From the IMG/VR virus record IMGVR_UViG_2534682109_000010: a stretch of 17,632 bases of DNA; one strand, given 5' to 3'. Position numbers: made by a program. Positions within the stretch are counted from its first letter, which is position 1; each line of letters begins with the position of its first letter. Below are positions 15,001 to 17,632 of this stretch, piece by piece. The DNA comes from a virus. Taxonomy: Duplodnaviria; Heunggongvirae; Uroviricota; Caudoviricetes.

Positions 15001-17632
15001 ACACTGAGCAATAGTCCATTCTCGTACGCTGCAACGTGAGGTCGTACCCCGGACACGGGTAAACATCCGGCAATTCCAGCTTACCACCTATTTAACCCCC
15101 TCCCCGTAACGAGACGAAGAAATGAGCACTCATCATGTTGTGAGTTTTTCAGGCGGTCGGACATCGGCGTACCTCGTCCACCTTATGGAGCAACGCAGAA
15201 AAGCTGGTGAAAACGTTCATTACATACTCATGGATACGGGATGTGAACACCCGCTGACGTACCGGTTTATTCGGGAGGTTGTGAAGTTCTGGGATATTCC
15301 GCTAACCGTGTTGCAGGTCGATATAAATCCAGAGCTTGGGCAGCCAAATGGTTATACGGAATGGGAACCAAAGGATATTCAGACGCGAATGCCGGTGCTT
15401 AAACCGTTTATGGACATGGTAAAAAAATATGGCACGCCATACATCGGCGGCGCGTTCTGCACTGACAGATTAAAACTCACCCCCTTCATAAAATACTGCG
15501 ATGACCATTTCGGACAAGGGAACTACATCACGTGGCTGGGTATTCGTGCAGACGAACCCCGTAGGCTGAAACCGAAACCGGGCGTCCGGTATCTTGCCGA
15601 ACTGTCAGATTTTGATAAGTCGGATGTTATCCGGTGGTGGCGAAAACAACCTTTTGATTTGCAAATCCCGGAGCACCTCGGGAACTGTGTTTTCTGCATC
15701 AAAAAGTCAACGCAAAAGCTGGGGCTTGCATGTAAAGACGAACCTGGTCTGATGCGGGTTTTTAATGAACTGGTTACAGGCAAACACGTCAGGGATGGTC
15801 ATCGCAGAACAGGTAAAGACGTTATGTACCGTGGTCACCTGACGCTTGACGGGATTGCCAGGATGTATGCCGACAGCGACTACAGCAATTTGTATCAAGC
15901 GATGGTGCTGGCCAAGCGGTTTGATACTGGTTCGTGTTCCGAATCATGTGAAATCTGGGGTGACCAATTGGAGTTGAAATTCGAAGAGGTAGTGGCATGA
16001 CAATCGTAAAAACCCATACCGGCATTGTGATCACCAAAGACGGCCCGCAGGTAAAAAAACTTCACCAGACAGAGCGGATGTGGGTCGTCGGCAAAAACGA
16101 GTTTTACCACAAAGAAACCGGACGCCGCCACTTTGCAGAAAATACTCGCCGCAGACTGCTGATCGACACAATCAAGCCTGTCGAGGTGAATCATGTTTAA
16201 ACAGAACGAAAAATCTATCGCTCAAATTGCTGAGTATATCCCGCGTACGTGCCGGGGTATGCAGTTGCAGGAAGCCAAAGCGCGCCTGGAGAAAAAAATT
16301 GCGCTCTATATCGATGACGGCTGTGATGCTGCCGTTCTTAACGCGGCTTTCGCACCAGCTCTTAACTGTCATACGCGGGAATCTTTTTTTTCGTGCATCG
16401 CAGCGCAGATCCACAAAGGAGGCAACCAGTGAGCAAAATTAATTACCAGGCACTGCGTGAGGCGGCAGTAGCAATTGAAACAGTAGCAACGCCTCAAAAA
16501 TTGCTGGCATTTCGTATGAAAGCCACACCTCAGGTTGTGCTGGCACTGCTGGATGAACAGGAAAGAAACCAGCAATACATTAAACAGCGCGACCAGGAGA
16601 ACGAGGAGATTGCGCTAACGGTAGGAAAGCTGCGTGTTGAGCTTGAGGAAGTAAAACAACACGCTGAAAAATTATCCGAAACCAAGGCTGTTCGTAACCA
16701 ATGGCGGCCAGATATTTGCCCAATAACCGGACGTACATTTTTCATGTGGATTGAGCATCCAACATTGGGAAATGTGCCGACATATGGTGGCCCATTAGAT
16801 AGTTACACCATTCCAACAAAGGACGGTGACGGTGAGTTTTCATGTGAGCATTACGATCATGATTTTGGCGGTTGGGTAGAAAGCGAATGTCTTGGGTTAT
16901 ATCTGATTGATGATAGAGAACAATGCAGGGTCTACGAACTGGAGGAACGCGTTAAAGAGCTGGAAACGCGGGAAGTTCATTTGCCGACTCGCTACGGCCT
17001 TCGATATGGACATCCGATAAATGATGATGAGCGCCACGTCATGATACCTAAAGAAAATGGCTGCTGGCTTTATCTGGCTGACTTAGAACATGCACTACGT
17101 GTTGCTGGCATTCGCATCAAAGGAGGGTGAGATGGCGTTAACACACCGAGAACTCTGTCAGATTGCGTACAAGTTCCTTAAGCGCAACGGGTTCAAGGTT
17201 TGCTTTCATGACCGCTTTATAGCCGTAACCAGTACCGGAGAACAGCCAGATGCTATGGGATTCAGAAATTCAGCATCATGCCTGATAGAGGCGAAGTGTT
17301 CTCGTGCTGACTTGTTGGCAGATAGAAAAAAGCGTTTCCGTAAAAATCCGTCTCTTGGAATGGGCGACTGGCGATTCTTTATTAGTGAGCCGGGAATTAT
17401 TTCAATTGAGGATTTACCACCTGGCTGGGGATTACTTCACGTTGTTAACGGAAGAGTACGGAAAGTACATGGGTGGCCCAAGGGTAATTGCTGTTGGGGT
17501 AATCCTGACGATAAGCCATTTACTGGAAATAAGCAGGTTGAATGCGATTACATGTTGTCTGCATTAAGGCGCATGGAGTTGAGAGGGCACCTTAATGAAA
17601 TATATGACGGTGTAATTGTTAATAAGAAAGAA

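Follow-up and report, generated by a model that had tools for sequence, protein, structure and literature searches.

Phage NinC, a PAPS-reductase-fold protein with a possible early role against modification-linked restriction of phage DNA

INTRODUCTION

DndC, a phosphorothioation enzyme of the PP-loop superfamily, is reported to have ATP pyrophosphatase activity and an iron-sulfur (Fe-S) cluster. A phage-borne relative of such proteins has been connected with escape from Dnd: a Vibrio podophage given p0018, in which a phosphoadenosine phosphosulfate (PAPS) reductase domain is fused to Dam, together with p0019 gained growth on a Dnd-carrying host (Piel et al., preprint 10.1101/2021.05.05.442762). 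Homologues of PAPS reductase in lambda and other mobile elements have been noted and their study urged (PMC11437467), and a 2026 paper, citing Piel et al., proposed phage PAPS reductases as a possible means of evading restriction or phosphorothioate systems (PMC13551039). Lambda can do without ninC, whose product is counted among the poorly understood proteins of the phage (PMC10695390; PMC3224144). Here we analyse a gene of this kind in IMG/VR virus record IMGVR_UViG_2534682109_000010, a stretch of 17,632 nucleotides from a virus of the Caudoviricetes (hereafter the window). The gene itself and the general anti-defence idea are already known from databases and papers. Comparison with its relatives leads us to read the product, tentatively and at slightly under even probability, as an active PP-loop enzyme that may act early against modification-linked restriction of phage DNA.

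RESULTS

The window encodes an intact NinC

The gene under study is the following.

15122..16000, + strand: NinC-family PAPS-reductase-fold protein, 292 amino acids, intact; recognised from an ATG-initiated open reading frame (ORF), PF01507, PHROG 424 and identity to lambda NinC

The protein matches PF01507 (PAPS_reduct) at 34.4 bits (gathering score 22.5; E 2.9e-8) with only residues 5-72 aligned, and matches over its full length two PHROGs labelled PAPS reductase, PHROG 424 (E 2e-92) and PHROG 33262 (E 1e-90). In a tblastn search of phage genomes, residues 5-292 align with lambda NinC (Orf290, lambdap64) at 79.5% amino-acid identity. The match in lambda imm21 comes after O, P, ren and a 146-amino-acid ORF in the place of ninB, with the small nin ORFs behind it; because of this place it is ninC (Orf290), and NinC is also the name given to the homologue at the same nin place in P22-like phages. 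The window protein and lambda NinC have the same length and the same PHROG, and each gene lies in an N-antiterminated delayed-early operon. The copies of lambda and the P22-like phages, however, are flanked by ninB and ninD in the pR operon, whereas the window copy is located in the pL operon. At the level of sequence, these comparisons show that the window gene is an orthologue of phage lambda NinC (Orf290), and NinC constitutes a distinct phage-borne clade of the PAPS-reductase/PP-loop fold. Proteins 100% identical to that of the window already carry a PAPS reductase annotation in phages encoding Shiga toxin 2a (Stx2a), and homologues named 'phosphoadenosine phosphosulfate reductase family protein' occur in 552 of 5,426 complete Escherichia coli genomes in RefSeq (~10%). 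A BFVD fold search returned only further phage 'PAPS reductase' entries.

An earlier note on this DNA, made from the sequence alone, had reported an ORF with an SGGRTS PP-loop in the early-left operon and had assigned it an ATP-pyrophosphatase/PAPS-reductase fold. The ORF is confirmed as intact, with the motif at residues 10-15; the fold is upheld by the sequence profile and the predicted fold, and profile searches did not place the protein in a different superfamily; synteny bears out the operon context. The same note had not recognised the gene as lambda NinC, a named gene for which both the PAPS-reductase similarity and an anti-defence hypothesis are in the literature.

Invariant residues fit an adenylating, metal-binding enzyme

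The predicted structure of NinC has an alpha/beta nucleotide-binding fold in common with solved members of the PP-loop superfamily. Conservation was scored over 114 diverse family members, representatives of 50%-identity clusters, and is concentrated in the following motifs.

15149..15166, + strand: P-loop SGGRTS, residues 10-15, read from the sequence; a PP-loop variant with Thr for the usual Asp (canonical SGGxDS)

15233..15250, + strand: DTG-x-EH nucleotide-binding motif, residues 38-43, from HMMER alignments to PDB 2goy, 6vpu and 1sur

15458..15484, + strand: C113-TDR-L-K118-LT-P121, with an invariant Cys and an invariant Lys, at the start of helix 113-130 of the model

15539..15565, + strand: Arg-loop G140-I-R142-A-D144-E145-P-R-R148; G140, R142 and R148 100% conserved, D144 and E145 99%

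15680..15706, + strand: G187-N-C189-V-F-C192-I-K-K195, a CxxC followed by basic residues; G187, N188, C189, C192 and K195 100% conserved

15935..15952, + strand: C-terminal tail motif C272-S-E-S-C276-E277, in a low-confidence tail that is probably mobile

In the P-loop, S10, G12 and S15 are conserved in 96-97% of members, T14 in 89%, and R13, the variable fourth residue, in 78%. The DTG-x-EH motif, in which T39 (97%) and E42 (99%) stand out, aligns with the DTG...PET motif of CysH and of adenosine phosphosulfate (APS) reductase. C113 and K118 are conserved in every member. In the tail, where the predicted local distance difference test score (pLDDT) of the model falls below 50 (residues 266-292), all members that reach this region have C276 and ~97% of them have C272. 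C126 is not conserved. Many homologues of ~330-370 amino acids (P0125, P0130, P0131 and others) carry an insertion of ~50-60 residues near profile position 150, just past the Arg-loop, and in these the profile match is split into two stretches. Taken as a set, the invariant residues fit an adenylating enzyme that may bind a metal or an Fe-S cluster.

NinC resembles APS and PAPS reductases in fold and differs from them in its motifs

The closest solved structures are those of APS and PAPS reductases (PDB 2goy, 6vpu, 1sur and 7lhr). They have in common with NinC the DTG...PET region, one Cys at the position of an Fe-S Cys in APS reductase and another in a flexible C-terminal tail. When NinC is aligned by MAFFT with the PDB sequences of these enzymes, C113 coincides with the Cys that opens the CC Fe-S motif and C276 with the catalytic Cys in ECGLH, and the conserved K-V-x-P is matched by K118 and P121. 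A B. subtilis CysH sequence served as bait for retrieving the PDB sequences, and the alignments contained PDB sequences only. By eye, reading the sequences side by side, the Arg-loop would correspond to the RR..S..R loop of CysH and APS reductase. It is plausible from the flanking motifs that the CxxC of C189 and C192 is equivalent to the GCxxCT Fe-S motif of APS reductase; automatic alignment is ambiguous here, in that hhalign and MAFFT give the invariant CxxC no unambiguous placement on GCxxCT, unlike C113 on CC. Profile-profile comparison of the NinC family with the PDB APS/PAPS reductases by hhalign, in global and in local mode, aligned the N-terminal third alone with confidence, and a phmmer search of PDB with residues 94-218 alone gave no match.

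The differences are equally specific. The tail of NinC reads GSCSESCE, with SESCE in place of ECGLH even though C276 aligns with the catalytic Cys; the P-loop retains both glycines and the final serine, which the aligned CysH/APS-reductase loops do not; and NinC has extra residues at ~68-105 and extra helices at ~197-267. Assignment as CysH or APS reductase was rejected, as all curated NCBIfam cut-offs were missed and no ECG[LI]H motif is present.

These comparisons bear on whether NinC could be an auxiliary metabolic gene, that is, a working APS or PAPS reductase that raises sulfate assimilation in the infected cell. Such a role would agree with the closest solved structures and with the positions of C113 on the APS-reductase Fe-S Cys and of C276 on the catalytic Cys; in addition, the PHROG category is 'moron, auxiliary metabolic gene', and viral 'cysH' is widely counted as metabolic in virome papers. 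We nevertheless consider it quite unlikely. The NCBIfam CysH, APS- and PAPS-reductase models have cut-offs of 154-254 bits, and the protein reaches 12-23 (NF002537, 22.6 against 154; TIGR00434, 16.1 against 165.1; TIGR02057, 12.6 against 254.2; TIGR02055, 12.3 against 235.3), SESCE stands where ECG[LI]H is expected, and the P-loop is unlike those of CysH and APS reductase. Furthermore, E. coli has its own cysH, and the repeated fusion to DNA methyltransferases described below makes no sense for sulfate assimilation.

NinC is repeatedly fused to DNA methyltransferases

Among the family members representing 50%-identity clusters, NinC is fused to Dam (PF05869) at either end, as Dam–NinC or NinC–Dam, and to a D12 N6-adenine (N6A) methyltransferase (PF02086). 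In one case, a single ORF of 968 amino acids joins three enzymes one after another, a C5-cytosine methyltransferase, NinC and Dam (IMGVR_UViG_2850135801_000009, locus L056, 4576..7482). Fusions in both orders and with three methyltransferase families tie NinC to DNA modification or anti-restriction. All identifiable fusion partners are DNA methyltransferases; a few long members have extensions without a Pfam match. Of 30 dereplicated IMG/VR loci, 5 have Dam fused to NinC and 2 have it as a separate gene close by. Salmonella phage Oslo has dam next to ninC, and the coordinates of the two genes overlap. The NinC of the window has no Dam domain. Another adenine methylase of the phage, encoded outside the window, has a DPPW motif and does not match the Dam or D12 profiles built here. 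Clustering of the ORFs within 6 kb of NinC in the 30 loci revealed no conserved partner gene, and only generic lambdoid early genes recur.

The fusion partners also bear on an action on RNA. As a tRNA-modifying PP-loop enzyme, whether of the TtuA/TtcA/NcsA-like thiolation type or of the TilS lysidine type, NinC would tune translation or guard tRNAs from anticodon nucleases. The [4Fe-4S] PP-loop sulfurtransferases TtuA, NcsA and LarE, which act on tRNA or a cofactor, differ from NinC in having only 11-15% sequence identity to it. No RNA-binding domain such as THUMP or the TilS C-terminal domain is fused or adjacent to NinC, the identifiable fusion partners all act on DNA as methyltransferases, and the best defence-family profile matches are DNA phosphorothioation enzymes. 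A tRNA substrate is on these grounds unlikely.

NinC is related to a protein implicated in Dnd escape and to the SspD and BrxP families

Over 281 residues, the window protein and the PAPS domain of p0018 of Vibrio phage 44E38.1 (P0088) share 56% identity (E 8e-111). The alignment includes the P-loop, C113, GNCVFCIKK and GSCSESCE motifs, i.e. every conserved Cys motif. The two proteins differ in that p0018 has a Dam domain and the companion p0019, neither of which accompanies the window protein. The neighbouring Vibrio gene p0017 has a homologue in the window, a DUF1367 ORF (1306..1755, − strand) 55% identical to it, while p0020 (GenBank) has no homologue in the window. A virome preprint (10.64898/2025.12.10.692286) tallies an anti-Dnd family under the label 'adnd_p0020', which may stand for the NinC–Dam protein or for a gene beside it in the Vibrio phage. 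Because p0017 is a DUF1367 homologue beside the NinC–Dam fusion, the Vibrio podophage has a small nin-like block consisting of p0019, NinC–Dam, DUF1367 and NinG.

Among the defence-system models of PADLOC, which carry no curated cut-off, the best match to the window protein is SspD (E 2.4e-14, 51.7 bits). SspD and BrxP are the proteins with a PAPS-reductase domain that write phosphorothioate marks in Ssp and BREX type 4, respectively. For 30 family members, SspD is matched by 30 of 30 (best E 5.9e-18), BrxP by 29 and DndC by 16. The DndC models give ~17 bits for the window protein, a weak similarity over residues 5-146. NinC thus shares its P-loop fold with SspD and BrxP, its nearest defence profiles, and its homology to them is clear; family membership would require more than this similarity establishes. 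In contrast to SspD and BrxP, which are found in defence islands, the NinC family is phage-encoded, and neither sspB/sspC, nor the brxC/Z/L partners, nor the DUF4007 domain of BrxP is present among the annotated ORFs of the window or the recurrent neighbour clusters of related loci. DndC belongs to the same superfamily, from which NinC departs in being ~200 residues shorter and in having no dndA/B/D/E nearby.

Homology to SspD, BrxP and DndC without partner genes of its own might also be expected of a competitor or sink, which would bind IscS/DndA, DndD/E or SspB/C, or drain an activated intermediate, and so disable the host phosphorothioate system without marking phage DNA. The report that a homologue is involved in Dnd escape (10.1101/2021.05.05.442762) is compatible with this as well. 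Strict conservation of the full catalytic set (P-loop, Arg-loop and four Cys) in very diverse members, however, points to catalysis, and at 17-52 bits NinC resembles DndC and SspD too distantly for a fit in their complexes to be expected. Moreover, blocked host modification would by itself be no shield for unmodified phage DNA against DndFGH. We give the competitor only a slim chance.

NinC occupies delayed-early operons of two kinds

The region around the window gene is 99.8% identical to Stx2a-converting lambdoid phages, e.g. Escherichia phage Lyz12581Vzw (Sepvirinae). The flanking genes are as follows.

10139..15014, + strand: upstream early-left genes, namely Kil, a 93-amino-acid ORF, RecT, a YqaJ-type Exo, an SSB-like protein, PHROG 204, DUF2303 and PHROG 1363, from Pfam and PHROG scans

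15997..16200, + strand: 67-amino-acid ORF, PHROG 1226, whose ATG overlaps the NinC stop codon (ATGA)

The 93-amino-acid ORF after Kil is annotated as GamL in MN067333, a phage with 99.8% identity. On the 3′ side of PHROG 1363 come NinC, two small ORFs and then Ead/Ea22, and in the matching phage record xis and int are next; the whole set is on the same strand except int. As annotated, this gene order is the lambda pL (early-left) layout. The ATGA overlap between NinC and the 67-amino-acid ORF suggests translational coupling within one operon. Promoter-like sites in the early-left block do not outnumber the chance expectation. There are 16 terminator-like sites, against 8.6 +/- 3.1 in shuffled sequences; those on the + strand lie within ORFs or upstream of the block, and the scan of the window found none between the + strand genes of the block around NinC. 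From synteny, we infer that the NinC of the window is expressed early.

The window also has a nin region on the − strand, containing Q (159..650), NinG (735..1304), DUF1367 (1306..1755), primase and helicase, and no ninC was found among its annotated ORFs. Among 80 related IMG/VR loci, two NinC contexts recur. In the pL-type context, with Exo/RecT or with DUF2303 and Ea22, the alleles are 71-78% and 92-100% identical to the window NinC; the nin-type context, with NinB, NinG or P, holds the lambda-like alleles and many distant ones. In both recurrent contexts the gene is in a delayed-early operon, and because both recur, a location in the nin region is customary for the family and not obligatory.

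The neighbours could also point to an accessory factor for phage recombination or replication, as lambda has NinC beside ninB (orf) and the window has it within the RecT/Exo/SSB block. The neighbours vary with context, however, no recombination gene is consistently adjacent, and the fold gives no hint of a nuclease, an annealase or a mediator. Furthermore, the yeast two-hybrid map of lambda contains no NinC interactions (PMC3224144). We regard this role as very unlikely.

Other parts of the window carry additional features. A type II restriction-modification pair lies directly 3′ of a cI-like repressor (5438..6151, + strand), in the place of lambda rexAB, and consists of an Eco57I-type N6A methyltransferase (6246..7715, + strand) and a BsuBI/PstI-family endonuclease (7712..8665, + strand); the lysogen probably expresses it, as a defence carried by the prophage. 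Two Rfam models score above their gathering thresholds in the window, and these matches, the isrK Hfq-binding RNA (9179..9254, + strand; 61.7 bits) and the C4 antisense RNA (9279..9366, + strand; 78.9 bits), lie just 5′ of, and overlap the start of, a Rha/anti-repressor-like ORF (9283..10068). By its sequence elements, this segment looks like a P1/P7-type C4 RNA–anti-repressor module in the early-left region. From the methyltransferase gene to the RecT block, the offset between the window and MN067333 shifts by 1,030 bp (window ~8700..9420; MN067333 28702..30308), and therefore ~1 kb of MN067333 is missing from the window, between the restriction-modification pair and the anti-repressor gene.

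DISCUSSION

Read together, the conserved residues and the comparative genomics suggest how NinC may work as an active enzyme against modification-linked restriction. An adenine nucleotide would be bound through the SGGRTS P-loop, the DTG motif and the Arg-loop, and a metal centre, most likely an Fe-S cluster, would be held by C113, C189 and C192, while the Cys pair on the mobile C-terminal tail would be used in the reaction. Such a constellation of conserved residues would befit an active enzyme and not a decoy. As to the type of chemistry, an oxygen may be adenylated and then replaced by sulfur, or a Cys-bound sulfur intermediate may be formed. Comparative genomics suggests phage DNA or a DNA-modification pathway as the target. 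Acting early, NinC would shield replicating phage DNA from modification-linked host restriction, the leading candidate systems being phosphorothioate-based Dnd, Ssp and BREX type 4, and it may be the counterpart of the orphan methyltransferases to which it is often fused. Variants can be envisaged in which the mark is written by NinC, in which host phosphorothioation of phage DNA is boosted, or in which the host system is interfered with. The idea that GATC methylation shields DNA from DndFGH was not used; PMC10470545 reports the opposite.

Several points weigh against this reading. The profile scores are far under the curated cut-offs of DndC and CysH. Membership in DndC was rejected, with TIGR03183 at 15.5 bits against a cut-off of 290.4 and with neither dndD, the nucleoside triphosphatase (NTPase) gene, nor dndE among the annotated window ORFs around the gene or the recurrent clusters of the 30 loci. 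More generally, no NTPase partner stands next to NinC among the window ORFs or these recurrent neighbour clusters. The SspD match spans only profile positions 1-121 of 277, the N-terminal half. Dam is fused or adjacent in only 7 of the 30 dereplicated loci, and most NinC genes have no methyltransferase neighbour. No homologue of p0019 (DUF6475) was found in the window. Lambda normally carries ninC. It is nonetheless restricted 3- to 60-fold by three Dnd systems, in experiments with a stock whose nin genotype is unstated (PMC10470545). Known phosphorothioate synthesis requires a P-loop NTPase in addition to a protein with a PAPS-reductase domain (PMC12914056). In the Vibrio experiment, p0018 and p0019 were moved jointly and replaced two methylase genes, so that the PAPS domain was not separated from Dam or from p0019 (10.1101/2021.05.05.442762).

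The earlier note suggested a possible part in modifying phage DNA or in countering a host defence. Indirect support for this comes from the 56% identity to the p0018 PAPS domain, the methyltransferase fusions and the SspD/BrxP affinity. The comparison with DndC and CysH that the note had called for places NinC in their superfamily and outside both families, and the genomic neighbourhoods of homologues yielded methyltransferase fusions and no conserved partner gene.

A bolder form of the idea is that NinC is a self-sufficient, one-protein DNA-marking enzyme. It would use ATP, an Fe-S cluster and persulfide sulfur from the host to place a sulfur-containing or otherwise unrecognised mark, with no need of an NTPase or nickase of the DndD/SspC type, and phages would have combined it with orphan methyltransferases into multi-enzyme protective proteins. 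We consider this improbable as it stands.

NinC is one of the last lambda genes that have a clear enzyme fold and no assigned function, and its homologues are also carried by the Stx2a-converting phages of enterohaemorrhagic E. coli. The present analysis identifies the window gene as NinC and records its relocation to the pL operon. It also gives the existing hypothesis a sharper, testable form, to which the methyltransferase fusions, the SspD/BrxP affinity and a short list of residues contribute. If NinC does protect phage DNA from phosphorothioate or other modification-linked defences, it would add an enzyme class to the anti-restriction repertoire and would help to decide which strains Shiga-toxin phages enter.

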